Origin: an uncultured Acidobacteriota bacterium
GTDB lineage: Bacteria; Acidobacteriota; Terriglobia; Acidiferrales; UBA7541
Length of the DNA: 64,000 nucleotides
Assembly (NCBI GenBank): GCA_963839325.1
Contig: CAWIUO010000007.1
Coordinates: 6,302-70,301, forward strand
Direction of reading: 5' to 3'
Position 1 is the first letter of the stretch; the number at the start of each line of letters is the position of its first letter. The notes beneath the pieces were generated by a model, which was not told the origin of the DNA, made no database searches, and saw only the letters and a list, made by a program, of their open reading frames with translations. This document shows, piece after piece, positions 1 through 13,674 of the stretch. The position numbers and the translations under genes are program-made.

Positions 1-96
1 TAGTTGGTACAGCGTGTTCTGCAGGTTGGTTTGCGTTGTGTCGAGTTGGTTTTCCGCCACCAGCGACGGAATGTTATTCAGTACGCTAAGCGCCAT
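1..96 (-). CDS. fliC: flagellin, N-terminal 32 codons only (gene runs off the left edge)
   Basis: Too short for the ORF track. The reverse complement of 1-96 reads MALSVLNNIPSLVAENQLDTTQTNLQNTLYQL, which fits the conserved flagellin N-terminal helix pattern. An AAGGAG Shine-Dalgarno (105-110) lies 8 nt upstream of the ATG at 96. Confidence 0.65.
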   Translation of the reverse strand, partial: MALSVLNNIPSLVAENQLDTTQTNLQNTLYQL

Positions 97-223
97 GTGA
101 ATGGCTCCTTGAATCTACTGCGGTGTCCGTTTCGCGGCCGGAGCCTTTCTCACCGGCGGGTCATTCCCCTCGCGCCGAAGGCTTTTCGTCCACGGAACGG
201 ATTTTGATGATTGTTCTGGCACT

Positions 224-250
224 GAATCGGCAGAGGTTGGGCCGGGTTTA
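224..250 (-). promoter_or_regulatory. sigma-28 (FliA)-type promoter candidate for fliC
   Basis: The minus strand reads TAAA-N15-GCCGATTC, against the consensus TAAA-N15-GCCGATAA. It lies about 130 nt upstream of the fliC ATG, directly after the stop of the upstream GT2-TPR gene. Confidence 0.5.
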
Positions 251-270
251 ATCCGCGGGGCCGGGAAGTC

Positions 271-1641
271 CTACGCCGGCGCTTTTTCACCCAAACCCTG
301 CGTCGCCGAATTCAAGAGTGTTTCAATCTTGGACAGGTTTGCCCGCAGCGGTTCTGAATCGGGAAATTCCTCGATCCCTCGATTCAAGATTGCCGCCGCC
401 TGCGTCCAATTCTTCATCTGCGCTCGAATGCTCGCCGCCCGCACAAAATCTTGCGGCCGCGCCGCCACCGCCCCTAGCTTCCGTTCTGCTGCCACGGCCG
501 CCGCAGGCAGATTCTTCAGCCAGACTTCCACCGAGATCAACCGGTCGTACAAATCGGGATTCGTCGGCTCTTTCTCAATCGCTTGCCGGATCAATCGCAG
601 GCCCGCCCGTTCATTTCCCGATCGCGCCTCGGCTACTCCCATCTTGCTCTCCAGCGACGTTGACACCGCAACGCGCTTTAATCCCCGCCGGTAACACGTA
701 CCGGCCGCCTCAAAATCTCCCAGGTTGTAATACGTATCTCCTGTCATCTCCGCCGTCAGCGCCGTTGAATGCGCGAAGCGCTCCGCTCGCTGAAAACACT
801 CCAGCGCCTTCGGAAACTCGCCCAACCGGAAATGGCACACTCCCAGAAAAAACCACGCGACGCCGAATTTCGGATTAATTTTGCAGGACTCCTCAAACGA
901 GCGAAGCGCTTCCCGAATGTTTCCGAAATTTTCCAGCTCCGCTACGCCCAGCTCGAAATGCGCCTGCGCGTTCGTGGGCATGTCCGCCACTTTCAGTTTT
1001 CCGAGGTCCCGGTAGAACTTGATCTTTTGAGCGCGCTCGTGAGCGTCTCGCACGATCCCCATGTGGTGGATCAGCAACTTCGAGTCGCCGATCGTTCCGC
1101 CCGACTCCTGTATCCTCCACCCCACCGTTTCGTGAACCCTGCCCGTGAAATACACCGAAGGATCGCGCCGGAAAAGCCGCACGTTTTCGTGATCCACGAA
1201 TCCCGGAAATCCGCGCGCGGGTTCGTAGCTTCCGTCGTTCGGCGTGGCCGTCCGGTCCCAAACGGTCGTCGCCATGCTGGTCACCCAGTTGCGGATCTTC
1301 ACCTGATATCCCGCCGCGCGCTTGTTCGCCAGCAGCGCCGGCAGCAGTTCTTTCGCGCTCTCATCCAGCCGCTCGTCTGCATCCAGAATCAAAACCCAGT
1401 CTGACTGCACCCTCGCCAGCGCCATGTTTCGCGCCTTCGCAAAGTCGCTCTCCCACGGAATCGAAAACACCCGCGCGCCAAACTGCCGCGCCACTTCCGG
1501 CGAACCATCCCCCGATCCCGTATCCGCCACCACGATCTCGGCCACAATCCCGCGCACGCTCCCCAGGCAATACGCCAGGTCTGTCGCCCCATTCTTCACG
1601 ATCATCGATAGTGCGAGTGTCTCCATCGTCCCAATTCGCAA
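271..1641 (-). CDS. family-2 glycosyltransferase with C-terminal TPR repeats (candidate flagellin-modifying enzyme by position)
   Basis: 456-aa ORF. The N-terminus has the GT2 pattern (LSMIVKNGA..., VVADTGSGDGS, LILDADERL). The C-terminal half has TPR-like repeats (AHFELGVAELENFGNIREALRSFEES..., WFFLGVCHFRLGEFPKALECFQRA...). It is directly upstream of fliC on the same strand. The start could instead be METLAL at 1626. Confidence 0.8.
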   Translation of the reverse strand: MRIGTMETLALSMIVKNGATDLAYCLGSVRGIVAEIVVADTGSGDGSPEVARQFGARVFSIPWESDFAKARNMALARVQSDWVLILDADERLDESAKELLPALLANKRAAGYQVKIRNWVTSMATTVWDRTATPNDGSYEPARGFPGFVDHENVRLFRRDPSVYFTGRVHETVGWRIQESGGTIGDSKLLIHHMGIVRDAHERAQKIKFYRDLGKLKVADMPTNAQAHFELGVAELENFGNIREALRSFEESCKINPKFGVAWFFLGVCHFRLGEFPKALECFQRAERFAHSTALTAEMTGDTYYNLGDFEAAGTCYRRGLKRVAVSTSLESKMGVAEARSGNERAGLRLIRQAIEKEPTNPDLYDRLISVEVWLKNLPAAAVAAERKLGAVAARPQDFVRAASIRAQMKNWTQAAAILNRGIEEFPDSEPLRANLSKIETLLNSATQGLGEKAPA

Positions 1642-2103
1642 CCACGGCTACCCGCTCTATTCCTTTCCGCCGCGCACACAGCTCCCGGTGCAGTTATCGG
1701 CATCCGCACCTCCTCCTTCACCCATCATCGCCCCCGCTGACGCTCAAGATGCACGACCGACCTACCCTCACTCCGCTTCATCACAGGCACCCACCCCTTT
1801 TAGAGTGCGGCGGCGAGCCGCCGCTTTTGCCCACCCAACACTCCGCCCAGCACCGCCGCTGCCTCGCCACGCACCCAAACGCTCCCCACGAAGATCAACC
1901 GCCACCAGGTCTCGCGCACAACGACCTTCCCGGCTACAAGCCATCACGTTACGCTTTCCATCGTTCTCGAACTTCCCATCCCCAAGCCATCAGCCCCGTC
2001 ATCCAGAGGCCCGATTCATCGGGCCGAAGGATCTCTCCTCGCCTCTCATAGCAACGTCGCCAACGCCCCCAACGAATTCCCATTTTGGGAACATACTATT
2101 CTC

Positions 2104-2132
2104 TTTACATCATTATACCTTTGTGGTAACCT
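2104..2132 (+). promoter_or_regulatory. sigma-70-like extended -10 promoter module conserved inside repeat copy A
   Basis: TTTACA-N17-TAACCT, with TG one base upstream of the -10 hexamer. The same architecture with identical spacing occurs in copy B (TTTACA-N17-TAACGT). It reads toward flbD. Confidence 0.3.
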
Positions 2133-2241
2133 CAGTTCGGGACAAAGTATTAGCCCCACAGCAAGCGCACATGCCAAGCGGCCGCATCACTCACGCCGCC
2201 GGACGCACTCTCCCCGGCATCACGCCCTCTTCCGAACCCAA

Positions 2242-2271
2242 ATTTCTAATCGCGCTTTCGCGATTAGAAAT
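2242..2271. repeat. perfect palindromic hairpin ATTTCTAATCGCG-CTTT-CGCGATTAGAAAT within copy A
   Basis: 13-bp perfect stem and 4-nt loop, read directly from the sequence. A half-site, CATTTCTAATCG, follows at 2305-2316. Confidence 0.9.
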
Positions 2272-2650
2272 CCTCGCAACTCCAACAAAACAAACCACCG
2301 CGCCATTTCTAATCGACGCTAACCATGCATTTTTCGAGACCCAGAAATCGCCGTGGCCTATGGTCATTCGCGCCAACAACGCCGATCCACACGGTTCTCG
2401 CGGAGCGCGGAGGCGCGGCCCAACTCGCCGAACCACTGCCGGCCACTCGAGCCGCTCACACCAGCCGGTAGTCTCGTTCAACACAAAGCCCAGCATCGGC
2501 ACACTCGCCTATGAACTGTGGCGACTCATCCGCGTTAGCGAACGCACGGACGCGTTGCAACCCAAAACCTCACACACCCTCTATCGTCGCCAATCTCCGA
2601 ACCACCGTCTCGCATCGGCACTCCCGCGAAGCCCTCGTCCTCGAATCGCA

Positions 2651-2666
2651 TGGCCACGCTCTTGCA
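2651..2666 (+). promoter_or_regulatory. sigma-54-type promoter candidate for flbD-motA-motB
   Basis: TGGCCACGCTCTTGCA fits TGGC-N7-TTGCA (GG-N10-GC spacing). It lies about 45 nt upstream of the flbD ATG at 2710. Confidence 0.45.
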
Positions 2667-2709
2667 CACAATCTTCGCGCCCAACTCCGTCTCCATTAGC
2701 GAGCCTCTA

Positions 2710-2985
2710 ATGATCCATCTCACACGCCTCAACGATCGCCCCTTCGTCGTCAACGCCGATCTCATCAAGCTCATCGAAAACGCTCCGGACACCACAATCA
2801 CCCTCCTCAACGGCGAAAAACTCGTGGTCAAAGAATCCATTCACGAAATCCTCGCCCGCATCGAAGATTTTCATCAACGTTCCGCCCGCCGCGTCCACGC
2901 GCTCTCTATCGCGGCTCCAGCCGATAACGAAGTGCTCGCGGCCGAGCATTCGCACGCACACGCAGCGCAAGTGAAGGCCGGCTGA
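2710..2985 (+). CDS. flbD: flagellar protein FlbD
   Basis: MIHLTRLNDRPFVVNADLIKLIENAPDTTITLLNGEKLVVKESIHEILARIEDF matches the FlbD family pattern and sits directly upstream of motA. I chose the internal ATG at 2710 of ORF 2650..2985. Confidence 0.75.
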   Translation: MIHLTRLNDRPFVVNADLIKLIENAPDTTITLLNGEKLVVKESIHEILARIEDFHQRSARRVHALSIAAPADNEVLAAEHSHAHAAQVKAG

Positions 2986-2986
2986 A

Positions 2987-3820
2987 ATGTCCAACGGAAT
3001 CGACAAAGCCAGTATCCTCGGCCCGATCGTCGCTTGTGGCGGGATCATCGTCGGTCTTTCTCTCGAAGGTGGGCGCATCATGCAAATCATCCAGCCCACC
3101 GCCGCGTTGATCGTCTTCGGCGGCACGCTCGGCGCCGTTCTTCTTCAATTTCCGATGAGCGTCGTGCTGGCTGCCTTCGCCAGCCTGGCGAGCGTCTTCG
3201 TGCCTCGCACCGAAGACCCGGTTCAGGCCGTCCGCGAAATGGTCGGCTACGCTGTAAAAGCCCGCAAAGAAGGCATCATCTCGCTCGACCGCGACCTCGC
3301 CAAAGTCGGCGATTCGTTCCTGAGGAAATCCCTGATGCTCGCGGTTGACGGCACTGAACCCACCGAACTCCGCAAAATCATGGAACTGGAAATCGCCAAT
3401 CGGGCCGACCGCGATGAAAACGTTCCCCAGGTCTTCGAAGCCGCCGGCGGATTTTCTCCCACCGTGGGAATTATCGGCGCCGTCCTCGGTCTGATCCAAG
3501 TGATGCAGCACCTCGACAACATCAACGAAGTCGGCCGCGGCATCGCCGTCGCCTTCGTCGCCACGATCTACGGCGTGGCATCGGCGAATTTATTTTTCCT
3601 TCCCATTGCCGGAAAATTGAAAGGTCGCTGCAGGGAAGCGCAGCTCCGTCGCGAAATCGTCTTGGAAGGCGTCATATCGGTTCTCGAAGGGATGAACCCG
3701 CGCATGCTGGAAACCAAGCTGCTCAGCTTCATCGCCGAAGAGCGCGGCGGAAAGCTCGCTGTGAAAGAAGGCGCGGCAATCGGCGTCGGCGTGACCGCAA
3801 ACCGCGCGGTGTCGCGATGA
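2987..3820 (+). CDS. motA: flagellar motor stator protein MotA
   Basis: 277 aa with four TM segments and the C-terminal MotA/TolQ/ExbB channel region (GIAVAFVATIYGVASANLFFLPIAGKL). The stop overlaps the motB start. Confidence 0.9.
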   Translation: MSNGIDKASILGPIVACGGIIVGLSLEGGRIMQIIQPTAALIVFGGTLGAVLLQFPMSVVLAAFASLASVFVPRTEDPVQAVREMVGYAVKARKEGIISLDRDLAKVGDSFLRKSLMLAVDGTEPTELRKIMELEIANRADRDENVPQVFEAAGGFSPTVGIIGAVLGLIQVMQHLDNINEVGRGIAVAFVATIYGVASANLFFLPIAGKLKGRCREAQLRREIVLEGVISVLEGMNPRMLETKLLSFIAEERGGKLAVKEGAAIGVGVTANRAVSR

Positions 3821-4626
3821 AGGCCAGACGCCATCGCCCCCACGCCAACCACGAACGTTGGCTGGTTTCCTACGCCGACTTCATCACTTTGCTTTTTGCC
3901 TTCTTCGTTGTGATGTATTCCACTGCGCAGGTCGATCAACGCCGCGTCGGGAAACTCGCGAAAGCCATCCAGGCCGGATTTCAGCAGATGGGCGTGTTCG
4001 ATTCCTCCGCCTCTGCGCCTCCAATCCTGATCGGCCAGCCCATCTCTGCTACGCCTAGCCTTTCGCTCGAACATGCCGAACCGGCCGACAAACCCGACAT
4101 GGCCATTGTCCAGAAAAAACTCGAATCCGCTCTTGCCGATCAACTCGCAAGCGGCTTCGTCGCCGTCACTCCCACCAAAGAGGGAATTGTCGTCAGCCTG
4201 CGCGAAGCCGGATTTTTCGATAGTGGTTCGACGCGCCTTCGAGCGCAGGCGCTCCCGACCCTCGCCGAGTTCGTTAGCGTAATCGGCCCCGAACGTATGA
4301 AAGTCCGGATCGAAGGGCATACGGACAACGTCCCCATCCACAACCGCAAATTCGACTCGAACTGGGAGCTCTCCACAGCGCGCGCCACGGAGATCATCAA
4401 ACTGTTTATCACTCGTTTTGGAATTGATCCCGTCAGGCTCTCCGCTTCCGGCTATGGCGAGTATTACCCGGTCTCGCCGAATGACTCGGACGCCGATCGC
4501 GCCAAAAATCGCCGCGTTGATCTCGTCATTTTGAATGCGAATGCGACGCTACACCAACCCGTCGCAGATGCTGAAAAGGCCGGAACGAACAAAGCTGCGG
4601 GCGGCGCAGACGCGTCTCAACGGTGA
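3817..4626 (+). CDS. motB: flagellar motor stator protein MotB (OmpA-like peptidoglycan-binding C-terminus)
   Basis: N-terminal WLVSYADFITLLFAFFVVMY plug/TM with the conserved Asp. OmpA-like domain RIEGHTDNVP...NWELSTARA...NRRVDLVI. Confidence 0.9.
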   Translation: MKARRHRPHANHERWLVSYADFITLLFAFFVVMYSTAQVDQRRVGKLAKAIQAGFQQMGVFDSSASAPPILIGQPISATPSLSLEHAEPADKPDMAIVQKKLESALADQLASGFVAVTPTKEGIVVSLREAGFFDSGSTRLRAQALPTLAEFVSVIGPERMKVRIEGHTDNVPIHNRKFDSNWELSTARATEIIKLFITRFGIDPVRLSASGYGEYYPVSPNDSDADRAKNRRVDLVILNANATLHQPVADAEKAGTNKAAGGADASQR

Positions 4627-4656
4627 TTAACTTAAGGAATGAAGAACGCAGGAACG

Positions 4657-5523
4657 TCAGTTCGGCGCGAGCGTCATCGGATCGGCATGATCGCGCCCGC
4701 CGGCAGGTGCAAGCTTTCGAATGCTTTCCGCGCGGCATTCGGCCAATCGGTGAAACCATTCCAGGCCCGGCAGTTTCGCGATGGTTTCGTCGATCCGTTT
4801 GGCCACCGCTTCTCCGTCCGCGCCACGCAGAATGTAATCCAGGATCCAGTTCACTTCGGCGTCCGGCTTCACTCCGCCGCCTACCGGCAGCCAGAAATGC
4901 TTGATGATAAGCGTAGTCAGCCGCTGCGCGTTCGGATGATGCAACTCGATCTTCGCTTTGTTGTAGTAAAACGAAAAATGCCGCCGCTCGTCCTTTGCCA
5001 GGCGGTTCAGGACTTCGGCAAGAATCGGATTGCGCGTCCGCCGCGCCAGCACTCCATAGCCTTCCAGCGTCGAAAGTTCGGAGATCGCTCCATACGTCAA
5101 ATACGCGCCGTGAAAATGCCTCGAGAACTGGCACACCATCGACGCGCCCATATCCTTCAGCCACTCGGTCCAGGACGTCCCTTTTTGCACTTCAGCGATC
5201 CGGTTCTCCCCGAACTTGATTCCGCACGCCGAAAGAAATTGCCCAATCGTCCGCCCGTGAAAAAACTCTTCATAGGCCCAGCAGCTCAGAAACGCAGTGG
5301 TGTCCGGATCTTCGATCGCGCAGGTCGAAAGAATGCTCCGCAGGTACACCACGGTGTGCGACTCGATATCCATCATGTATGTCAGGCAGTGGATTTCGTC
5401 TTCGGTCAGCGGATACTGGGTCGCCCGCGACAAATCGATGTCGCTGATGTCCACTTTTTTCGAGTTTTTCAGATAACGTTCCAGATCGAACGTACCCACC
5501 ATTTGCGTAGCCATTCGAGCCAC
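4657..5523 (-). CDS. ferritin-like diiron-carboxylate protein (acyl-ACP-desaturase-like fold)
   Basis: 288 aa with two ExxH-type motifs (AYEEFFHGR and KDERRHFSFY), as in diiron oxygenases and desaturases. The exact family was not determined. Confidence 0.6.
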   Translation of the reverse strand: MARMATQMVGTFDLERYLKNSKKVDISDIDLSRATQYPLTEDEIHCLTYMMDIESHTVVYLRSILSTCAIEDPDTTAFLSCWAYEEFFHGRTIGQFLSACGIKFGENRIAEVQKGTSWTEWLKDMGASMVCQFSRHFHGAYLTYGAISELSTLEGYGVLARRTRNPILAEVLNRLAKDERRHFSFYYNKAKIELHHPNAQRLTTLIIKHFWLPVGGGVKPDAEVNWILDYILRGADGEAVAKRIDETIAKLPGLEWFHRLAECRAESIRKLAPAGGRDHADPMTLAPN

Positions 5524-5684
5524 CTTGGTTTAACTAATTATCGGCTGATTGAAGTACGCCGTAAGCGGGAGAACGGATTGGGAAGGAACCCGCGACTGTT
5601 GTCTATTACGCACCAGATTACTCCGCCGGAATCTTGGGCGCCGGAGGAGCATTACTTAGGAATAATTGTTCGGAAGGTTGGTGT

Positions 5685-6605
5685 CTAGTGGGGTTCCGGA
5701 GCTTGTTTCGGACGCGTATCGGGGGCATCCGCCTCGGACGCATCGGCGGGTTGCGGTTTTCCGCTCACTTGCGCCACAACTTTTGCAGCGAGGCCTTTGC
5801 TGATTGCGCAATTCGTGTCGTTGATGCGGCACTGAGCGAGGGTCAGCCCGCACCCGCAGTCGCAAGTCTCCGAATTCAGGCGTTTGAGCGTAACCGTTTT
5901 TTGTTCGGCAGTCAGTCCGGTGAAATCTACATCCGGCAACTCGGTCGCGCGATTCGCATTCTTCAGAAAGATTTGGCCGGTGTCCTCAAACGTCTGGATC
6001 GTCGCTTCCACCGGCAATCCCAGCAGCGCTCGAATCTCGCCCTCATATACCGAGCTGCGATACAGGCCGATATGCTTCTGAACGACTTTCCCGTCTTGAT
6101 TGATCACGAAAGTAGTCGGCAGCGCCGGCACGCCGCCATAGTCCGAAATAATCTGCCGCGTCGCCATAATCACCGGGTAATTGAACCGCTGCTCCACCGA
6201 GAATTTTTTCACTTCTTCCGCGGGATCGTCATCGAGCGAAACGCCCACGATGACCAGACGATCCTTGTAGAGATCCTTCAGCTGGATGAGCATCGGAATC
6301 TCCGCCCGGCATGGCGGACACCACGTCGCCCAGAAATTCAGCAGCACCACTTTGCCTTTCCACTCCGCGGTCGACACCGGAAGACCGTCGAGATCCGCGG
6401 CCAGAAACGGCGGTGCATCTTGAGGATTGCTGGCAAACCGGATGATGTGGGCTTGGTCGGAACCCGCGAAGGAGTTCGCGCTCGTTGCGCCAGAAGACTT
6501 CGCTCGCGAAAGGCGAGCCTTCCCCGGTCGTACTTTGGCAATGCCTATCGCCAGTCCCGCAAGAGCGAGAACCACGGCGAAAACAAAGATGAGCGAACGT
6601 CGCAT
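5685..6605 (-). CDS. TlpA/ResA-like membrane-anchored thioredoxin with an extra Cys-rich C-terminal domain
   Basis: N-terminal TM (LIFVFAVVLALAGLAIGIA), WATWCPPC active site, and a C-terminal ~100 aa containing CDCGCGLTLAQCRINDTNC. Confidence 0.8.
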   Translation of the reverse strand: MRRSLIFVFAVVLALAGLAIGIAKVRPGKARLSRAKSSGATSANSFAGSDQAHIIRFASNPQDAPPFLAADLDGLPVSTAEWKGKVVLLNFWATWCPPCRAEIPMLIQLKDLYKDRLVIVGVSLDDDPAEEVKKFSVEQRFNYPVIMATRQIISDYGGVPALPTTFVINQDGKVVQKHIGLYRSSVYEGEIRALLGLPVEATIQTFEDTGQIFLKNANRATELPDVDFTGLTAEQKTVTLKRLNSETCDCGCGLTLAQCRINDTNCAISKGLAAKVVAQVSGKPQPADASEADAPDTRPKQAPEPH

Positions 6606-7054
6606 TCAGTGAAGCTGGCCATGTCTATTATGCGCGAGCGCATTACGACGAACAAGCCGCGAAACACTTAATGTGCATTGCGCGAACCGAATCCTTCACG
6701 TCTGTATCTGCGTTCGCGAATTTCGAGCTTCATTCCATTCCGATTTGGAATCGGGGGTCTGTTCGAGTTCCGAAACGGTCCGCGCAAGCTGCCTATCCTC
6801 TGCGCGAATACCCGTAAGTCATTGAAAATGAAGGACGGCCAGCTCTCTCGCTTGCCCTCGTACTTGGGCATCCGGCTTGCACTAGCGACGGCGTGGGTCG
6901 CGTTCCAACGATCTGCTCCGTTTGCAAGTGGGGAGGAAGGGGCCTGCTTGTGGATGGTGTAGGTCGTTCCCACCTGCCTCTGAGAGGGAAGCTAGGATGG
7001 ATGACCCCATGGTCCGGTCACGCCTAGGCCGGGCCAAATGGAGCGCGACCTTTG

Positions 7055-7092
7055 GGGGCTCTTGATCCCAAGCAAGAGCCCCTTCCTTTTTT
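7055..7092 (+). terminator. rho-independent terminator-like hairpin
   Basis: GGGGCTCTTG-loop-CAAGAGCCCC followed by TTCCTTTTTT. No annotated plus-strand gene lies upstream of it. Confidence 0.5.
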
Positions 7093-7194
7093 CCTCTCGC
7101 TCCCGCACGCGCCTGCACTCGTTCTCGTTCGCGCCCCCTACTCCACTTCGCGCCTCTGTTCCATTGCGGTGCGTTTGTGTGATAGCTTGCCGCG

Positions 7195-7674
7195 ATGACA
7201 ACCCCTACTCTCGTGTTTCTGTTTGCGTTTCTCATCGGCGTTGTAGCCGGCCTTCGCGCTATGACGGCGCCTGCCGTCGTTTGCTGGGCTGCGCATCTCG
7301 GTTGGATCAATCTCAACGGTTCACATTTGGCGTGGATGGGTTCGATCATCGCTGTAGCGATTTTTACGCTCGCAGCGATCGGCGAGCTGGTCAACGACAA
7401 GCTGCCAAAGACTGGCCCCAGGACAGCTCCGCCGTCTGTCGTGATCCGCTGCGTAATGGGTGCGCTGTGCGGAGCTGCATTCGCGATCGCAGGAGCGCAC
7501 GGCTGGACCCTGGGTGCGGTGATCGGAATTGTCGGAGCTCTGGTGGGAACGTTCGGCGGTTATCAGGTGCGCCATCAGATAGTGACGGGCGCGAAGATCA
7601 AAGATCTGCCAATCGCGTTGATCGAGGATGTGATCGCAGTGGGTGGTGGATTCTTAATTGCTTCCCGCTTCTAG
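7195..7674 (+). CDS. DUF4126-like integral membrane protein
   Basis: 159 aa, four hydrophobic segments, Gly/Ala-rich. The N-terminal pattern LFAFLIGVVAGLRAMTAPA resembles DUF4126. Confidence 0.6.
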   Translation: MTTPTLVFLFAFLIGVVAGLRAMTAPAVVCWAAHLGWINLNGSHLAWMGSIIAVAIFTLAAIGELVNDKLPKTGPRTAPPSVVIRCVMGALCGAAFAIAGAHGWTLGAVIGIVGALVGTFGGYQVRHQIVTGAKIKDLPIALIEDVIAVGGGFLIASRF

Positions 7675-7896
7675 CCTACGAACGACCGGAATTCGGGCGC
7701 TGCGCAGCACGCTTTCTACCACGGAGTCGCGAAGTCGCGACGCGTCGTAGTCTAGATGCAAGTGATTCGTCTTTTCGTCGAGACGGAAGCTGTGGATGCC
7801 GTACGTGTTGGCGAACTGGCCGAGCGCGCGGAACTGCTCAGGCGTGAGGCGCTGCTGCAGTTCGTAGGAAGCGGTCATCAGTGTCATGCGCAGCAT
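7654..7896 (-). CDS. small hypothetical protein (80 aa)
   Basis: Balanced amino-acid composition and no recognisable family. It is convergent with the DUF4126 gene and overlaps it by 21 nt. Confidence 0.35.
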   Translation of the reverse strand: MLRMTLMTASYELQQRLTPEQFRALGQFANTYGIHSFRLDEKTNHLHLDYDASRLRDSVVESVLRSARIPVVRRLEAGSN

Positions 7897-7930
7897 TATA
7901 GCAAAGGAAGCCTGGGCACGAGCGGCGTCG

Positions 7931-8545
7931 CTAAGTTGGCTTTGTCGCCGACGCGAGTCGGCGGTGTGCGCTCGACCACGGGAAATCTTCCGGTTTGGTT
8001 GATAGCCGGGCCCAGACCGGATTCTTCGCGATGTAGTTCTGCATTTTTACGAAGTTTTCCTGATCCCGGCTGTAGCGATCGAATGAGCGGGATTCCCAGA
8101 ACTGCCCTGTCCGTTCAAGAATCAGGTTCGCATGGTGTGCGGTGACGCCTTTCAGCGACCTCATGAACACGCTGACCTCGTGAATTGGAGTAACGAGCAT
8201 GTGAACGTGGTTCGGCATTACCACGTATGCGTGAAGCGTGTAGCGATGGAATTCATTCTCTCCTCGCTCGATCGCGTCGCAGACCATTTCGGCGACGCGA
8301 ACGTCGTTGAGCCACGTAGGGCCTGTTTCTGCCGCGTCGAGTAGTTTTTCGATGCGGAGTTGGCGTTCGCGGCCCGGCAGCTTCTGGACTTCTTCGGTCT
8401 TAGCTTCGCTCAACGGCGGCAGCGAGTCGTGCAGCCTGAACGTGATGAGCATCGGAGTTCCTGGAGGGAACTGCGGCTTCTTCGGGCGAGCATCCTGCGC
8501 GAATTGCCTACGAACGTACGAGGATTGAACGGTTTTAGTGGGCAT
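7931..8545 (-). CDS. REP-associated tyrosine transposase (RAYT) / IS200-like Y1 transposase family protein
   Basis: HUH motif in YVVMPNHVHMLVTP and catalytic-Tyr region QNYIAKNPV. I chose the internal ATG (MPTKTV) at 8545 of ORF 7931..8683. Confidence 0.8.
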   Translation of the reverse strand: MPTKTVQSSYVRRQFAQDARPKKPQFPPGTPMLITFRLHDSLPPLSEAKTEEVQKLPGRERQLRIEKLLDAAETGPTWLNDVRVAEMVCDAIERGENEFHRYTLHAYVVMPNHVHMLVTPIHEVSVFMRSLKGVTAHHANLILERTGQFWESRSFDRYSRDQENFVKMQNYIAKNPVWARLSTKPEDFPWSSAHRRLASATKPT

Positions 8546-8582
8546 TCGGAATTGATAGCGCAGACGCAGGCGGCTGGATAGT

Positions 8583-8633
8583 CGTAAAACTACGGAAAAT
8601 TTACGTACGTAGTTTTGCTCCGTAAAACTACGG
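8583..8633. repeat. three copies of the AAAACTACG motif (direct-inverted-direct) able to form two mutually exclusive hairpins
   Basis: CGTAAAACTACGG at 8583-8595 and 8621-8633, with the inverted CGTAGTTTT at 8608-8616. Located 38-90 nt upstream of the RAYT start. Confidence 0.7.
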
Positions 8634-8669
8634 ATGAGGTCGGCGCGCTTCGGCGACCATGAATGAACG

Positions 8670-11191
8670 CTAGAGTTGGACACGGCGGAGGCGGAGCGCG
8701 TTGGCGATTACGCATAAAGAGCTAAAGGTCATGGCCGCGCTGGCGAAAATGGGGCTGAGGAGCAGATGCCGAAGAAGGGGTAGAGAAGCGCCGGCGGCGA
8801 TGGGGATGCCCACCGAGTTGTAGGCGAACGCGAAAAACAAATTCTGGCGGATGTTGCGCATCGTGGCGCGGCTGAGCTTGCGGGCGCGGGCGATGCCGCG
8901 CAGATCGCCCTTGAGGAGCGTGATTCCTGCGCTTTCCATGGCTACGTCAGTGCCGGTGCCCATGGCGATGCCGACGTCGGCTTGCGTCAGCGCGGGGGCA
9001 TCGTTGACGCCGTCGCCGGCCATGGCGACGATGCGCCCTTGCGATTGGAGTTTTTTCACAATCTCGCGCTTTCTGATCGGGCAGCACTCCGGCATGAAAG
9101 TCGTCGATGCCGAGCTTGCGCGCGACGCGCTTCGAGCGGTGGAGCGGCTGTCGCCGGTGAGCATTACGACGCGGATTTTCTCGCTGTGGAGCGCGGCGAT
9201 GGCCGCGCTCGGTGGTGGCTTTCACTGGATCGGCGACGGCGATGAGCGCCGATTGCACTGCCGTCGAGAGCGACGAAGATAACGGTCTGGCCGTCAGATT
9301 CGAGCGCGCTGGCGCGCGCTTCCAGAGCGCCAACAGGAATTTCGAGCTCTGCGAATAGCGCGCGGTTACCCAGAGCGGCGGCGCGGCCATCGATCGTTGC
9401 GGTGATGCCTTTCCGGTCGATCGAGAGAAAGTCGGTCACGGCAGCCTGGCGCGATTTTCTTAGCGCGCGGCGGCCGCAAGATCGCGGCGGCGAGGGGATG
9501 TTCGCTCGCGCGTTCGAGTGCAGCTGCGACGCGCAGATACGTCGTCCTCAGACACTCGTTGACGATTTGCGGCGACGATCGCGGCGACCCGCGGGCGGCC
9601 CTCGGTGAGCGTGCCGGTCTTGTCGACGACGAGCGTATCGACTTTCTCGAGGCGTTCGAGAGCCTCGGCGTTCTTCAGAGCACGCCGGCCAGCGCGCCGC
9701 GGCCAGTGCCGACCATGATCGCCATCGGCGTGGCCAGAGCCGAGCGCGCAGGGGCACGCGATGATCAGCACGGCGACTGCGTTGACCAGGCGCGTGGGCC
9801 ATGCGCGGCTCGGGTCCGAACAGCGCCCACGAAAGAAACGTTACGGCCGCGATGGCAGGACAGCGGGCACAAAGTAGCGCGCGACGCGGTCGGCAAGCTG
9901 CTGGACGGGCGCGCGGCTGCGCTGCGCCTCGCTGACCATGCGCACGATTTGCGCGAGCATGGTTTCGCTGCCGACGCGTTCGGCGCGCATGACGAATGTG
10001 CCGGTGCCGTTGACGGTGCCGCCCGTGACGCTGCGCCCGCGTTTTTTCCACAGGGATCGGCTCGCCCGTGACAGAGTGATTCGTCGACAGCACTCTCGCC
10101 GTCAAGGACGACGCCGTCGACCGGGACTTTTTCGCCCGGCCGAACGCGAAGGCGTATCGCCGGGCTGCACATGCTCGAGCGGGACGTCGATCTCCGTGCC
10201 GTCGCGAGCGGACGAGCCGCGCGGTTTTCGGCGACAAGCTTCAGCAGTGCGCGAATCGCGGTCGAAGTGCTGGCTGCGGGCGCGCAAGCTCGAGACACTT
10301 GCCCGAGCAAGACGAGAGCCGTGATCGCAGCCGCGGCTTCGAAGTAAACCGGCATCGTGCCGTCGGCGCCGCGAAAGGCGCAGGGAAAATGTGCGGCGCC
10401 AGCGACCGCCACGACGCTGAAGAGGTACGCTGTGCCGGTGCCGATCGCGATCAGCGTGAACATGTTCGGGCTGCGATTAACGAGCGAAGCCCAACCGCGC
10501 TCGAAAAATGGCCAGCCGCCCCAGAGGACAACTGGCGTCGCGAGCACAAATTCGATCCAGGCGATCGCGCGCTCGAGAGAGACGCGCTGAGATGGGCAGG
10601 CCGGGAATCATGTCCGACATCCCGAGAACCAGCACGGAAGCGTGAGCGCCACGCTGACCCAGAAGCGGCGCGACATCAGGGACGAGTTCGGGATTTTCCT
10701 CGTTCGGCGATGGCGACGGTGCGCGGCTCGAGCGCCATGCCGCAGATCGGACAAGAGCCGGGGCTCGGCGGATGATTTCGGGGTGCATCGGGCAGGTGTA
10801 TTCGACGCGTGGCGCGGGCGCGGCGGAGCATCTCGGGTTCAAGAGCCATGCCGCACTTGGGGCATGCGCCGGGATGTTCTTGGCGGACTTCGGGATCCAT
10901 TGGGCAGACGTATATGTCGTTGGACTGAGGCTGAGAAGCCTCGCTCGTGCGCTGCGCTTGCGTTCCGAGTTGAACTAGGTCGCGAGAACCGTGGGCGTTT
11001 GCCGGCGGAATTGCCGCGGCAGCCTTCGCGGCGAGGCGCTCACGATCGCGGGCGAGCATGGCTTCGGGATCGGCGCGGAATTTTTCCGCGCAGCCCTTGC
11101 CACAGAAGAAATAGTTCTTCTCGGCGTGTTCGACCTGCGCGGCGGCGCGCAGAGGGTCCACGGTCATGCCACAGACGGGATCGCGTTCCAT
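8670..11191 (-). pseudogene. copA: copper/heavy-metal-translocating P1B-type ATPase (CopA-like), reading frame broken many times as assembled
   Basis: Homology runs through ORFs 10676..11191, 10477..10842, 9765..10547, 9548..10237, 9460..9771, 9164..9439 and 8670..9164. Motifs: CGMTV...FCGKGC (YHS/TRASH), two CPM-PE...CP-CGMALEP modules, [30 protein letters not shown]. Confidence 0.85.
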
Positions 11192-11660
11192 GGTTCGTCC
11201 GATTGGATGCTGGTGGCTCCTTTGTCGATGAGTACTTTACGCTGATTCGCTACGAAACGGCGAGCGAGGCGGCAGGCTAGAAAACTGATGTTCATAGGCA
11301 TGATTTGTTGCGGCGTGGTGCGCCGGTGTCGCCGAGGTGGTGCTGGCTTGAGCAATGCGGCGATTGCTCGCCGCACTCCGAAAGCTCGCGTCGCGACGCT
11401 CGCGGATACTGAGGGGCTGCCTGAACATCCGGAGGAAGCGCGGGCCAAGTTGCGCAGTCCCGTGAAGCGGGACTACCCCACGACGAGCTGCTCGAAATGG
11501 CCAAAAAAGTGCCGACTTGGAGCCGGTTAGCGAGTAGCATCGCGCTCTGTTTTCATGAAGTTCCATAACATTTTAATCGCGGGAGCGCCGATTAGAATTC
11601 GGTTCTGCGGGGAACACATACCAGAGGACTGCAAATTCGAAGTAGCGCGAAATAATGTCC

Positions 11661-11929
11661 AGTTAGTGCCGATTAGAAATGAATTTGTGTTGCAGGCGTT
11701 GGAGTTAGGAGTGATTCTAATCGCGGATCCGCGATTAGAAATCTGTGCCGGGGAAGAAACGCTGGGAGCGAGATGCGGCGACGTGCCGGGAGTGGAGCGT
11801 CCGGCGGCTTGGGTGAGGCGGCCGCTTGGCATATCCGTTCGTCATGGGGCGCGAATTCAGCCCCGACCCACGTTACCACAATGGTAACTAGTTGTAAAGA
11901 GAATAGCGTGGGTTCCAAAATGGGAATCG
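11661..11929 (-). repeat. dispersed repeat element, copy B (inverted relative to copy A)
   Basis: Its reverse complement aligns with 2074-2324 at roughly 70 percent identity by eye, with one ~20-nt indel. Extra CGATTAGAA / TTTAATCGCG units lie at 11571-11600. The promoter-like module is at 11870-11898, reading toward copA. Confidence 0.75.
11715..11740. repeat. palindromic hairpin TTCTAATCGCG-GATC-CGCGATTAGAA within copy B
   Basis: 11-bp perfect stem. The arms are the same as in the copy A hairpin; only the loop differs. Confidence 0.9.
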
Positions 11930-11944
11930 GACGCGCGCAGTGGG

Positions 11945-12466
11945 TCAGTGCGAGGAAAGAATGGCGTTGATGGAGTCGGTCATTTGGGGGCTGGTCCAGT
12001 CCTGGGCGCCGATGATCTTGCGGACGAGCTTGCCTTTGCGGTCGATGATGTAGGTGTCGGGATACATGGTGGTGCCGTACATTAGTGGGATTTTCTTGGT
12101 GGTATCTCGAAAATTCGGGTAGGTGAGACCGTAATGCTGGATGAAAGTTTCGTAGGCGTCGCCGTTGTCGTCCACGCTGACGCCGAGGACGGTTCCTCCG
12201 AGCGGCGCAATGCGGGCCTGAAGTTGATTCAGGGATGGCGCCTCTTCGACGCAGGGAGGACACCATGTGGCCCAAAAATTAAGGAAGACAACCTTTCCGC
12301 GGAAGTCGGAAAGGTGCGCGGGCTTGCCATTCAAGGTGAGAGCGAAATCGGGAGCCGTCTTGCCCGTGAGGCTCGGTTCGCCCTGTCGATAGTCCGGGGT
12401 TGCGAATAGATAGAGAATCCCGGCAATAAAGACGAGAACCAGGGCCGTAATCAGTTTGCGTTTCAA
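11945..12466 (-). CDS. TlpA/ResA-family thiol-disulfide oxidoreductase
   Basis: FWATWCPPC active site. I chose a TTG start (LKRKLITALVLVFIAGILYLF signal anchor). The long N-terminal extension of ORF 11945..12757 looks non-coding. Confidence 0.75.
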   Translation of the reverse strand: MKRKLITALVLVFIAGILYLFATPDYRQGEPSLTGKTAPDFALTLNGKPAHLSDFRGKVVFLNFWATWCPPCVEEAPSLNQLQARIAPLGGTVLGVSVDDNGDAYETFIQHYGLTYPNFRDTTKKIPLMYGTTMYPDTYIIDRKGKLVRKIIGAQDWTSPQMTDSINAILSSH

Positions 12467-12626
12467 TCCGCTGTCCAAGCAACCTATAATACGAAATCCG
12501 CGAGCGGAACGCGAACCGCTTGGTTCGAATCGGGGGCCGCGCGCGACGCTGACTCCGCAGCATCCAATGGGCTGAGCCGCCGCAAGCACGGGTTTTCTCC
12601 AGCGCACGAGCCTCAAACGACGAGAC

Positions 12627-13674
12627 ATGACAACTGCAGTTACCATCTCCGCGATCATTCCGGCGCGAAACGAAGAAGTTTCGATAGCACGCGCCGTGGA
12701 ATCCGTTGCCGCGCAGCCGGAGATCGGCGAGGTGATCGTGGTGAACGACCAGTCCACTGACCGAACGGCGGAGATCCTTGAAGGGCTTGCGCGACGTATA
12801 GAGAAGGTGAAGCTGGTAACTACGGGCGAGCTTCCGACGGGATGGGTAGGGAAGAATCACGCGGTTTCACTGGGGGCGGCCGCAGCGACGGGCGATTGGC
12901 TGCTGTTCACCGACGCAGACACATTTCATGAGCCGGGTTCAGCGCGGCGCGCGCTGTCCGATGCGGCGGAGCACAACGCGGTGCTTGTTTCCTATTCGCC
13001 AGAACAGGAGTTGGAATCGTTCTGGGAGCGAGTACTGATTCCGTTTGTGTATTGCCGGCTCGCATCGCGGTTTTCGTTCGCGCGGGTAAGCCGGCCGGAC
13101 ACGAAGGATGCCGCGGCGAATGGGCAATACCTGATGGTTTTGCGCGACGTGTACGAATCGCTGGGCGGGCACACCGCGATTCGCGGCGAGATTTTGGAAG
13201 ATGTGGCTTTAGCGCGGCGGGTGAAGGAAGCCCACTACGGAATTTATTTCACCGCCCCCGTGGGCGCAGTGCGGACGCGGATGTACCGCAGCTTTGGAGC
13301 GATGTGGCAGGGATGGACGAAGAATCTATATCCCTTGAACGGCGGAACGGCTGGCTCGATAGTGCGCGAACTGGCGGAGGTGGTTCCGTGGTTCGAAGCG
13401 CTGCTGGTGGGTTGGTGCGTGTGGCACGGAATGCGCAGCGGGCGGATGGATTGGGAGTTGACGTTTGGAGTGGTTGCGCTCGCGCTGGTGTACCGGCTGG
13501 TGCGTTACGGCCTCGAGCTTTACAAGAATCTCTACCCAGTGGATTACATCCAATATTATCTTCCGGCGATGGCGCTGTATTCGCGCGGCGTTGACGGCTT
13601 CGTGGTGGAAGAACACGCGGGGACACGTGGTGTGGAAGGGACGCACGTACGAAGGAAGCGCCCGCAATGCGTAG
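12627..13674 (+). CDS. family-2 glycosyltransferase (HpnB/CrtQ-like membrane GT2), one apparent frameshift near 13575
   Basis: ISAIIPARNEE, VVNDQSTDRT, LLFTDADT, QGWTKNLYPL. The expected C-terminus (...SWWKNTRGHVVWKGRTY) is in ORF 13465..13674, a different frame from ORF 12627..13814. Confidence 0.7.

Follow-up and report, generated by a model that had tools for sequence, protein, structure and literature searches.

In the 64-kb stretch of acidobacterial DNA analysed here (the window), two hairpin-bearing regions lie in inverted orientation some 9 kb apart, with a RAYT transposase-like gene between them. The locus raises the question of what these elements are, and whether the RAYT mobilises them and the segment that they appear to bracket, as an earlier note on this DNA suggested.

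Two paralogous cassettes

The reverse complement of 11648-11929 aligns with 2074-2336(+) at 207 identical columns of 250 (83%), with one indel block of ~19-22 nt. This local alignment scores 134-137, against 19 +/- 2.6 in 500 dinucleotide shuffles (z ~45) and a top score of 30 among 1000 random window segments used as a control. The similarity claimed earlier, for which a statistical alignment had been named beforehand as the test, therefore stands well above shuffled sequence, at an identity higher than the ~70% then estimated, and the two regions are confirmed as true paralogues, copies of a non-coding cassette referred to here as A and B.

2074..2350, + strand: composite cassette A, one TTCTAATCG module preceded by the promoter-like module and 5' domain; sits ahead of flbD-motAB in the same orientation
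11499..11929, - strand: composite cassette B, two tandem modules preceded by the promoter-like module and 5' domain
2650..4626, + strand: flbD-motA-motB operon (ORFs), downstream of cassette A
8670..11191, - strand: copA, encoding a P-type ATPase; follows cassette B and is split over several reading frames in the window

The conserved blocks GATTCCCATTTTGG (one mismatch in A), CTATTCTCTTTACA, ATGCCAAGCGGCCGC and GCCGCCGGACGC, the perfect hairpin TTTCTAATCGCG-N4-CGCGATTAGAA and the CATTTCTAATCG half-site were each located where the earlier note had placed them, and the exact 9-mer TTCTAATCG occurs seven times in the window, always within these elements. Long gaps without ORFs, of 1008 nt and 753 nt, hold the two copies, which share, as observed before, one polarity toward the next operon: A reads toward flbD-motAB and B, which follows a TlpA-like gene and precedes copA, has the orientation of the latter. 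A and B face inward. The gene assignments are based on Pfam FlbD, MotA_ExbB and MotB_plug/OmpA matches on identical or orthologous flbD-motA-motB genes, and on YHS, HMBD and Hydrolase domains in the copA ORF fragments; copA is intact in relatives (826-839 aa).

A three-armed module

At its 3' end A carries ~100 nt that, like the two tandem units of B, belong to a widespread, dispersed intergenic repeat family, named here the TTCTAATCG module. Its order is arm1, (T)TTCTAATCG; a loop of 6-12 nt; arm2, CGATTAGAA(A); a conserved spacer of 35-36 nt containing ..GTAAC..AAAACAAA..; and arm3, an exact repeat of arm1 plus the next 4 nt. An A-run and a T-run are often present.

2237..2350, + strand: TTCTAATCG module of A (nhmmer profile E=3e-20, profile columns 6-121); arm1 2243-2254, loop 2255-2258, arm2 2259-2270, arm3 2306-2315, T-run ~2332-2338
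11645..11748, - strand: module B1 (nhmmer E=2e-12); exact arms, arm1 11740-11732, arm2 11723-11715, arm3 11678-11670
11499..11604, - strand: module B2, a tandem degenerate copy (nhmmer E=1e-9); arm1 11597-11589, arm2 CGATTAAAA 11579-11571, arm3 TCGCTAACCG

The spacer of the A module contains AACTCCAACAAAACAAAC. Module B2, which is conserved at the orthologous site L133, includes a terminator-like hairpin with T-run at 11526-11512. The "two additional units" previously noticed in B at 11571-11600 do exist, but they are rather the hairpin of this second tandem full-length module, 11604-11499(-). The earlier note had overlooked that across genomes the conserved unit is the 3' ~100-nt module only, and also its third arm, its private 4-nt tag and its occurrence in tandem arrays of one orientation.

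The third arm lies at a constant offset of 35-36 nt in 102 of 127 hairpins. The tag following arm1 equals that following arm3 in 86 of 120 modules (k=3), compared with 22.6 after permutation, and the boundaries of the repeat are sharp; no complementary partner for the tag is found nearby. All three arms have changed in concert at loci L006 and L002, and the arm sequence is extremely conserved across ~75 assemblies. In old copies and in the L133 orthologue, arm2 is the first to decay, while arm1 and arm3 stay intact.

Distribution of the module family

Further copies are plentiful. A GTDB scan returned at least 119 loci, with a full module in 110 of the 119 matches listed, and the full-module hosts are Acidobacteriota/'Ca. 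Acidiferrales' MAGs (Terriglobia), including many soil Acidobacteria genomes. A profile search of ~1 Mb of locus sequence gave 139 full-length copies. Among 120 modules, 117 (98%) sit between genes. The gene that follows has the orientation of the module in 62-63 cases and the opposite one in 45-47, about a quarter of modules sit between convergent genes, and no Pfam enrichment was found nearby (~150 families among 103 neighbouring proteins). Modules often stand in tandem arrays, and adjacent modules are co-oriented 40:3. A single SNP among four assemblies indicates an element that is stable within a population.

No Rfam 15 model (4227 models) matched anywhere in the window at gathering thresholds, nor in the two cassette regions at E<=10 or in eight typical module loci at E<=1. 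Membership of a known RNA family such as Acido-1 or Acido-Lenti-1, both named for checking in the earlier note and assumed to be included in Rfam 15, is thereby not supported: those motifs are likewise non-coding, hairpin-containing and acidobacterial, but our elements match neither them nor any other family in the collection. The module appears to represent no described family in the resources searched.

It could be speculated that a lineage-specific DNA-binding protein recognises the three TTCTAATCG arms in double-stranded DNA, as operators or nucleoid-protein sites, the cassettes then being regulated promoters. Conservation of the arm sequence itself, beyond pairing, the persistence of arm1 and arm3 where arm2 decays, the fixed arm2-arm3 spacing, and the intergenic position with promoter-like motifs sometimes present would all suit such sites. 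We nevertheless judge this distinctly unlikely, as inverted arms spaced by 6-12 nt are incompatible with a dimer on a fixed palindrome, a covarying 4-nt tag is unexpected for a protein site, half of the copies are not upstream of a co-oriented gene, and no exact solo arms occur outside modules in the 64-kb window.

The 5' domain

Upstream of the module or modules, a 5' domain of ~170 nt is fused in the lineage of the window. It comprises a promoter-like TTTACA-N17-TAnnnT, a conserved sigma-70-like motif (TTTACA-N17-TG-n-TAnnnT with its TG included), and two small hairpins.

2104..2132, + strand: promoter-like module of A; TTTACA 2104-2109, 17-nt spacer, TAACCT 2127-2132, TG 2124-2125
11870..11898, - strand: promoter-like module of B; TTTACA 11898-11893, 17-nt spacer, TAACGT 11875-11870, TG upstream
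2139..2157, + strand: small hairpin 1, GGGAC-N9-GCCCC (GGGGC/GCCCC in L125 and B)
2178..2199, + strand: small hairpin 2, GCGGC-N12-GCCGC, within the conserved ATGCCAAGCGGCCGC...GCCGCCGGACGC block

The promoter-like module described earlier is indeed conserved, as CTTTAC(A/T)-N17-TAnnnT, across five sequences (A, L125, B, L133 and L038), but its -10 hexamer is weak (3/6), and for this reason a consensus promoter scan of A and B called no promoter. Support for hairpin 1, from an alifold consensus of four sequences, is weak: L038 has a single G:C to G:U change, and in A one pair is mismatched. Hairpin 2 keeps its pairing in L038 through one compensatory swap, G:C to C:G (GCGCC/GGCGC). The 5' domain is rare, being present in A, B, their orthologues (L125 and L133-136) and L038, and a metagenome pattern scan for it found nothing beyond three independent loci. 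Composites stand at no fewer than three loci, before flbD-motAB, copA and a hydrolase gene in OY969716.1, and are co-oriented with the downstream gene at all of them. TGGTAAnnT-like -10 regions also occur upstream of other modules; a good sigma-70-like site is present upstream in only ~12% of arrays, a difference from controls that is not significant.

Gain, loss and constraint at orthologous sites

At the flbD site, L125 carries a composite, L126 an inverted module only, and L127 and L128 an empty spacer of 202 nt. At the copA site, L133-136 carry a composite with two modules, and L132 (75 nt) and L137 (133 nt) are empty. No transposase, classical target-site duplication or exact empty-site junction could be defined, the intergenic DNA at orthologous positions having diverged beyond alignment.

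Where retained, the cassettes are well conserved. A and its L125 orthologue are 82% identical, compared with 68% at codon position 3 of neighbouring genes, and B is colinear with L133-136 over ~460 nt at 80.5% identity. Overall, composite identity is 80-83% versus 58-78% at codon position 3 of flanking genes, and the composite is under purifying selection.

A small protein gene could in principle be read here, as an ATG conserved in five sequences (ATGCCAAGC...) starts an ORF of ~100 codons, whose 306-nt frame is open and gap-free in B and L133. Such a gene is scarcely credible, however. Identity is flat by codon position (0.87/0.80/0.81 for B versus L133; 0.88/0.85/0.83 for A versus L125), unlike that of real neighbouring genes (~0.90/0.94/0.66), and so marks the cassette as non-coding. 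Moreover, amino acid identity (68%) is below nucleotide identity (82%), the A and B frames diverge past the 19-nt indel, and a Shine-Dalgarno sequence upstream of the ATG is not obvious by eye.

It is conceivable instead that the module, or the cassette in its entirety, acts as a structured RNA, either an sRNA or a cis-regulatory leader, in which arm2 would alternate between arm1 and arm3 in the manner of an attenuator or riboswitch and the C-rich 5' region would serve as a Rho-loading site. A variable loop between conserved arms speaks for a single strand that folds; arm2 complements arm1 and arm3 alike, with two three-way compensatory changes, and the 5'-domain hairpin adds one compensatory swap. 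With a promoter-like motif on one side and a gene on the other, the cassettes are better conserved than synonymous sites and lack indels over 306 nt; a C>G skew of ~-0.13 precedes 88 of 103 modules, and the fold z-score of A is -2.3. We consider this reading fairly unlikely, since module orientation to flanking genes is unbiased, with the quarter between convergent genes noted above, no gene family is associated, and no Rfam match appeared even at permissive thresholds. The repeated tag, moreover, has no pairing partner, and arm2 is lost first while the remainder is conserved; A and B suggest a long-range helix, but L125 and L038 do not keep it, and the fold z-score of B is only -1.0.

The RAYT gene and comparison with REP elements

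7931..8545, - strand: RAYT (Y1_Tnp HUH transposase-like, Pfam PF01797), judged to lie outside the element system
8583..8634, no strand assigned: RAYT 5'-flank repeat, CGTAAAACTACGGA twice plus a ACGTACGT palindrome, GTAG on the RAYT strand

The model of REPIN/REP-like hairpin repeats mobilised by the RAYT has some appeal. A genuine Y1 HUH gene lies between the copies, the hairpin-plus-tetranucleotide logic of the module resembles that of REP and IS200/IS605 ends (PMC6006769), and atypical HUH-associated hairpin families have been reported from Acidobacteria. Modules share several traits with REP, BIME and REPIN elements, whose enzymes are RAYTs (TnpA_REP): they are palindromic hairpins, short and conserved, that occur strictly between genes, in many copies and in clusters; they are specific to a lineage, in which they persist for long, and a tetranucleotide beside the hairpin matters.

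The model is nonetheless highly unlikely and already largely refuted. Distances of 2.8 kb and 5.6 kb separate the RAYT from the elements. In all relatives its flanks carry a palindrome of its own, of GTAG type and different from the module, which is conserved upstream of the gene as CCGTAGTT(T/C)TACG in L129-L137; modules have no GT[AG]G foot. The copA-RAYT-ORF80-DUF4126 synteny is kept in L132-L137, so that the RAYT remains downstream of copA even in the species without B (L132, L137), and ~950 kb of module-bearing loci hold one unrelated Y1_Tnp gene only, 1.3 kb from the nearest module. The RAYT is thus a vertically inherited syntenic gene not tied to modules, which leaves the REPIN link unsupported. 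The same applies to bracketing: gene order is unchanged in relatives without A (L127) or B (L132, L137), and the 9-kb segment is therefore no unit delimited by repeats. Unlike alternating REPINs, module clusters are co-oriented; they also possess the extra third arm and conserved 36-nt spacer. REPs are species-specific (PMC6006769), whereas module arms are conserved across many species, at a modest observed copy number (at least 4-8 perfect copies per genome among the matches listed). The earlier note was right that A and B exceed a classical REP in length and in degree of structure.

A proposed two-layer portable cassette and systems that resemble it

Paralogy, hairpin and promoter-like module thus survive from the earlier interpretation, and of its three options a promoter-carrying MITE-like element or shared 5' leader fits the evidence best. 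With modest conviction, we favour a two-layer non-coding cassette, a REP/MITE-like module with a fused promoter/leader 5' domain. At orthologous sites modules come and go, they stand in co-oriented tandem arrays, and they lie beside unrelated genes in either orientation; they therefore behave at the DNA level like a non-autonomous REP/MITE-like mobile element. The cassette may then act as a portable promoter and long structured 5' leader for the operon downstream of its landing site, the composite having spread to at least three loci, always aimed at the downstream gene. Several results weigh against this reading: the weak -10 hexamer and uncalled promoter, the small share of arrays with a good sigma-70-like site upstream, the failure to define a transposase or an exact junction, the stability of the element within a population, and the three independent loci to which the 5' domain is confined in the scans. 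Retention across species and purifying selection could equally reflect a host function with occasional loss.

We hypothesize that each module arose as a greater-than-unit-length (~1.2x) copy of a 65-nt unit, whose 13-nt terminal redundancy would account for the private 4-nt tag. The variable loop may point to a single-stranded hairpin intermediate, and such an origin would suggest a strand-specific, hairpin-recognising enzyme acting in trans. The neighbouring RAYT was considered for this role and rejected, given its different cognate palindrome and its synteny independent of B.

IS200/IS605 ends (PATE-like) and the class 3 HUH-Y1 "REPtron-like" systems of Acidobacteria and Planctomycetes (Quentin et al. 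2018, PMC6006769) share with the module a conserved stem with variable loop, a 4-nt element beside the hairpin foot and a direct, strand-specific rather than inverted organisation; class 3 also shares its acidobacterial host range, with a dispersed hairpin family reported in Solibacter (PMC6006769). The reported class 3 foot, CnGA, lies 5' of the hairpin (PMC6006769), whereas the module tetranucleotide lies 3' of arm1, in the loop, and is repeated by identity, not complementarity. The module sequence was not found in the PMC6006769 supplements searched. Also unlike these systems, no HUH gene adjoins the module, and its orientation shows no bias to local GC skew.

Pneumococcal BOX elements are modular mosaics, boxA-(boxB)n-boxC, and the Correia elements of Neisseria are promoter-carrying MITEs. 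Neither is related to the cassette in sequence. Correia elements end in inverted repeats with a simple target duplication at their flanks, which the cassette lacks, and the 13-nt terminal redundancy with private tag is found in neither family. In organisation the likeness is closer: a 5' unit and a variable number of co-oriented tandem middle units make up a composite, the whole is intergenic, and promoter-like sequences and hairpins can be brought before genes, which can alter their expression.

Two related cassettes in the window

The inverted likeness between the two cassettes, A upstream of flbD-motAB and B upstream of copA, lies far beyond chance. Positions 2074-2324 and the reverse complement of 11661-11929 give a local alignment score of 134; 500 dinucleotide shuffles give 19.0 +/- 2.6 (z about 45), and none of 1000 random window segments exceeds 30. 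When extended flanks are taken in, the similarity covers 2076-2336 and 11927-11648, with 207 of 250 columns identical. Reading and aligning both regions recovered all of the sequence blocks that an earlier note had described, and its account of polarity is borne out as well, with A and B facing inward and each directed at its own downstream operon. Within the 64-kb window the diagnostic blocks are confined to A and B, as are all seven occurrences of the exact 9-mer TTCTAATCG. A profile search places one copy of a ~100-nt repeat, here called the TTCTAATCG module, at the 3' end of A and two at that of B (B1 and B2). The two additional units that had been noticed in B are therefore present, but they are the second tandem module of B rather than separate units.

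Features of the window around cassettes A and B
271-1641, minus strand: glycosyltransferase-TPR (GT-TPR) gene, preceding A
2074-2350, plus strand: composite cassette A
2237-2350, plus strand: module of A (profile match)
downstream of A, plus strand: flbD-motA-motB (ORFs, Pfam)
4657-5523, minus strand: desaturase-like gene
5685-6605, minus strand: TlpA-like gene
7195-7674, plus strand: DUF4126
7931-8545, minus strand: RAYT, a genuine Y1 HUH protein
8583-8634: RAYT flank palindrome/repeat, CCGTAGTT(T/C)TACG + ACGTACGTAC (in the orthologous loci L132 at ~3948, L133 at ~3951 and L137 at ~3779)
8670-11191, minus strand: copA, split over several frames, downstream of B
11929-11499, minus strand: composite cassette B
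11748-11645, minus strand: module B1 (profile match)
11604-11499, minus strand: module B2 (profile match)
11945-12757, minus strand: second TlpA-like gene, flanking B

Distribution of the module

The module belongs to a dispersed, lineage-wide family. When one genome for each GTDB species was scanned with the pattern TTTCTAATCG-N6-12-CGATTAGAA, at least 119 stretches matched. Among the matches listed, nearly all come from Acidobacteriota, 'Ca. Acidiferrales' or Terriglobia MAGs (about 75 assemblies, often several matches per genome, with four to eight or more perfect-arm loci per genome), and 110 of 119 loci carry the full module. Matches in Ruminococcus, Bdellovibrionota and Pseudacidobacterium have the hairpin only and were discarded as chance. 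The module profile, built from the copies among these matches, finds 139 full-length copies in about 1 Mb of sequence, and in the window it finds three. The "promoter" and "core" blocks that stand upstream in A and B are missing at nearly all of the listed scan loci, and no population-level polymorphism of the element was seen. Many full modules occur in MAGs labeled Ca. Aquilonibacter, Baltobacteraceae or Dormiibacterota (loci L015, L030, L043, L046, L059, L077, L086, L095 [DATJOL01], L085 and L036), and MotA homologues labeled Ca. Aquilonibacter share about 72-73% identity with the window MotA; the taxonomic labels or the binning of these MAGs look doubtful.

The possibility raised earlier that the pair represents a structured RNA gained nothing from Rfam, whose models we assume to have included Acido-1 and Acido-Lenti-1. 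There were zero relevant matches at the gathering threshold in the whole window, and permissive searches gave nothing relevant at E up to 10 in the A and B regions or at E up to 1 in eight typical loci. Motif strings retrieved only unrelated primers and barcodes from the full-text literature, and the motif is absent from the supplements of PMC6006769.

Anatomy of the module

The recurrent order within a module is arm1 (TTCTAATCG), a loop of 6-12 nt, arm2 (CGATTAGAA), a spacer of 35-36 nt and arm3, which has the arm1 sequence. GTAAC and AAAACAAA are conserved in the spacer, and an A-run and a T-run often follow arm3. With arms of 9-10 bp (12 bp in A and B), arm1 and arm2 make a short hairpin-forming palindrome. 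The loop is variable in length and the arm2-arm3 spacing is fixed, which speaks for a folded single strand rather than for duplex DNA bound by a dimeric protein.

The 4 nt that follow arm1 recur after arm3 of the same module as a private tag, in 86 of 120 cases at k=3 compared with 22.6 when partners are permuted. These tags are diverse (ACAC, GGAA, TCAC, ATAG and others), and the edges of the repeat are sharp on both sides. Pseudoknot or guide pairing of the tag was rejected, since no complementary 4-mer covaries with it within 150 nt and none exceeds permutation. Repeated by identity and with no covarying complement, the tag therefore forms part of a 13-nt direct repeat, not of a helix; this repeat consists of 9 constant element nt and 4 variable nt, and the inverted arms lie inside the module rather than at its ends. 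In decayed copies outside the ascertained set, arm2 erodes first, and arm1, arm3 and the tags stay matched. All three arms have changed in concert in two modules, at L006 (C:G to T:A) and L002 (A:T to C:G), where it should be borne in mind that covariation statistics are biased by seed copies chosen for exact arms. At L002 (4630-4950, minus strand) a variant-arm module (TTCTACTCG/CGAGTAGAA) is flanked by two copies of TTCTAATCGACACAGATCGGG(A/G)CC, as though it had been inserted, or had arisen by duplication, at an arm of a module already in place.

Two or three modules are present at 40 of 120 loci. Neighboring modules share the same orientation in 40 cases and oppose each other in 3, and they lie about 105-370 nt apart without regularity. 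The distances between forward arms show a single peak at 64-66 nt. Because this peak has no multiples and the "spacer" is conserved across genomes, a 65-nt periodic or CRISPR-like array was rejected, and the module differs from a CRISPR mini-array on the same two points.

In 88 of 103 loci, C exceeds G on the module strand (skew about -0.13) for at least 400 nt upstream. Gene orientation was rejected as the cause at a coding-strand skew of about 0, and far-flank GC skew (60 negative, 52 positive) gives no replication-strand bias that would explain the C-rich flank. That the flank might be a "graveyard of older modules" left by directional array decay is not supported either, at 22:18. Tandem heptamers (CACGAAT/CACTAAT/CACCAAT, 4-10 units) lie immediately 5' of arm1 at L002, L004, L008, L035, L056, L058, L104, L108, L113, L114 and L118 and add to this C-rich, G-poor flank.

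The palindromes of A (2243-2270) and B (11743-11715) are "perfected" 12-bp versions, TTTCTAATCGCG-N4-CGCGATTAGAA. Unlike A and B, their orthologues L125 and L133 have ordinary loops and an eroded arm2, a contrast that points to quasi-palindrome correction, or to conversion between the two cassettes within the genome.

Genomic context

Of 120 modules, 117 are intergenic. The gene that follows downstream is co-oriented with the module in 62-63 cases and opposed in 45-47, and divergent, convergent and tandem contexts occur at ~1:1:2, as chance predicts. No neighbor-gene enrichment was found among the proteins adjoining modules, which represent about 150 Pfam families, and transposase families are not enriched among them; rRNA, tRNA and tmRNA genes show no association with modules. 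In orientation (62 vs 45) and in having no enriched gene set, the module differs from a cis-regulatory RNA leader or riboswitch. These results bear on the main rival to a mobile-element interpretation, an RNA-level switch that would have arm2 pair with either arm1 or arm3. The module itself has neither orientation bias nor gene association, which speaks against such a switch; for the composites, in which a 5' domain precedes the module, it is possible.

A good sigma-70-like site lies upstream of only about 12% of module arrays, which is not significant, and a general sigma-70 promoter upstream of modules was accordingly rejected. A boxB-boxA-like GCTCTTTGAAAA element stands upstream of 12 modules. 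An rRNA leader reading was rejected, as a 16S gene is close by only at L084, where the rrn promoter lies downstream of the module. At loci without an rRNA gene, and several times per genome (three in CAVUDN01), a hairpin with (A/G)CGCTCTTTGAAAA behind it recalls the boxB-boxA antitermination element known from rRNA leaders; it stands 60-280 nt upstream of the modules at L034, L050, L051, L106, L046, L107, L105, L010, L007, L078, L114 and L118.

The RAYT gene and the 9-kb segment

A REPIN/RAYT link had been proposed for the pair, with A and B bracketing the segment that contains RAYT. Between the gene and the nearest modules lie 2.8 kb and 5.6 kb. In several species RAYT, at 62-66% identity, keeps its place in the order TlpA-copA-RAYT-ORF80-DUF4126, and some of these species are without B: L132 and L137 have a RAYT orthologue and no module in the locus, and in L133-136 the modules are about 2.9 kb from RAYT, beyond copA. 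The 5' flank of RAYT contains in every relative a conserved GTAG-type palindrome, CCGTAGTT(T/C)TACG...ACGTACGT, that is unrelated to TTCTAATCG. About 950 kb of module loci contain just one other Y1_Tnp gene, which is separated by 1.3 kb from the module closest to it. On the basis of its own GTAG palindrome, its synteny without B and the single Y1_Tnp gene in ~950 kb, RAYT was rejected as a partner, and there is no link between it and the modules; the pattern fits a domesticated, vertically inherited gene with a REPtron-like flank. Nor does the bracketing hold, as gene order in the 9-kb segment is unchanged in relatives without A or without B, and the inverted pair thus does not delimit a mobile unit.

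Composite cassettes at orthologous sites

The composite cassette is rarer than the module. Its 5' domain (~170 nt) was found in only one fetched locus besides A and B, L038 (chromosome OY969716.1), upstream of a hydrolase gene, and a metagenome pattern scan for it gave four chance matches only. All three independent composite loci are co-oriented with the downstream gene (3/3), which is too few to judge a position rule.

Orthologous loci, reached via MotA and RAYT homologues, document gain and loss. At the GT-TPR / flbD site, the full composite is present in a 94% relative (L125). In an 88% relative (L126) there is one module only, oppositely oriented and lacking the 5' domain, and in an 85% relative (L127/L128, which is also the genome of L038) the 202-nt spacer is empty. 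At the TlpA / copA site, L133-L136 contain the 5' domain followed by two modules in tandem and align colinearly with B for about 460 nt, and the site is empty in L132 (75-nt spacer) and L137 (133-nt spacer). Presence and absence at the two sites mean that gains or losses of the composite have occurred as species diverged. A second type of composite is found at L023, L063, L096 and L109, where a TTGAAA/TATCAT-like promoter region, GGAGG and ATG precede one or two modules; its conserved region spans about -190 to -80 from arm1 and lies upstream of unrelated genes (aconitase, ribBA).

The composites are under purifying selection. B and L133 are 80-83% identical across the full 750-nt spacer, compared with 58-78% at third codon positions of the flanking genes, and A and L125 are 82% identical compared with 68% at third positions. 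A conserved ATG frame is gap-free in B and L133. A small protein gene was nevertheless rejected, because identity by codon position in this frame is flat (0.87/0.80/0.81 for B vs L133, 0.88/0.85/0.83 for A vs L125; about 0.9/0.94/0.66 in neighboring genes) and because A and B do not share the frame. Two small hairpins of the 5' domain are conserved in five sequences, with one compensatory swap; a long-range closing helix from the A and B folds is not kept in L125 or L038 and was rejected. The promoter-like architecture described in the earlier note stands as a conserved motif, CTTTAC(A/T)-N17-(TG-n-)TAnnnT, in 5/5 sequences, but a consensus scan makes no promoter call: the -35 hexamer TTTACA matches at 5/6, and after N17, with a TG extension, the -10 hexamer TAACCT or TAACGT matches at 3/6, below the 4/6 rule of the scan.

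Relation to known repeats

REP and REPIN elements are imperfect palindromes of 20-65 nt, with a cognate RAYT flanked by repeats within about 1 kb (REPtron); they form alternating or inverted clusters (BIMEs, REPINs) and usually exceed 100 copies per genome. The module shares with them a short hairpin-forming palindrome. It differs in its foot, which in the profile consensus is (A/T)TTTCTAATCG with no GTAG or GTGG (GTAG occurs instead in RAYT's own flank repeat), and in that RAYT is not flanked by modules and adjacent modules are co-oriented by 40:3. Published definitions of a REP call for a GT[AG]G foot together with a cognate RAYT alongside, and the literature also reports atypical hairpins with a CnGA foot surrounding the class 3 HUH genes of Acidobacteria (PMC6006769; PMC3733652). 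The module falls under neither published definition. Presence/absence polymorphism at the orthologous flbD and copA sites is shared with MITEs, but the module has a 13-nt direct repeat instead of terminal inverted repeats with a host target-site duplication. The module can be classed with the REP/MITE/BOX intergenic repeats as an architecturally unusual variant; its direct-inverted-direct arms, private 4-nt tag and co-oriented arrays distinguish it from REP/BIME, MITE, BOX and CRISPR-type repeats.

The reading that we favor is that the module spreads, or once spread, as a non-autonomous element via a single-stranded hairpin intermediate, and the 13-nt terminal redundancy suggests that it may be a greater-than-unit-length copy of a 65-nt unit. 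The cassette, for its part, may provide the downstream operon with a promoter and a long structured leader. Taken to its furthest point, this would make the module a miniature mobile element of a new kind, a reading that we regard as improbable: each copy would be a ~1.2x linear copy of the 65-nt unit (hairpin plus 36-nt spacer), made via a single-stranded or circular intermediate, conceivably by rolling-circle/HUH-type nicking or polymerase template jumping, and the promoter-fused element would have been co-opted by the host to serve as a portable leader. Copying of this sort would account for the redundancy with its private tag, the concerted arm changes and the co-oriented arrays.

Terriglobia Acidobacteriota are among the most abundant soil bacteria and are seldom cultured, and to our knowledge their non-coding DNA is largely uncharted. 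An order-wide, sequence-conserved intergenic repeat now has a profile and a clear anatomy, and annotation pipelines could mark it. As the repeat is fused to a promoter-like domain before flagellar motor, copper ATPase and hydrolase genes in some species and not in others, the composite makes repeat-driven rewiring of gene expression directly testable, and the architecture of the module hints at a copying mechanism without published description. Should the family be only a decaying MITE-like one, it would still offer a genotyping and synteny marker for MAG-only lineages.

Neighboring genes and base composition

The window copA occupies at least four reading frames, whereas its orthologues are intact at 826-839 aa in L132, L133-135 and L137; the copA of L136 is fragmented like that of the window. 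The split in the window reflects either a pseudogene or assembly consensus errors. The flbD ORF (2650-2985) has 111 aa from its first ATG and its orthologues are called at 90-91 aa, so translation probably begins at an ATG inside the ORF near 2710, and the leader that follows cassette A would then be longer. GC skew is -0.205 over window positions 1-4000, compared with +0.05 to +0.16 across most of the next 44 kb, and the C-rich region 5' of cassette A accounts for part of it.
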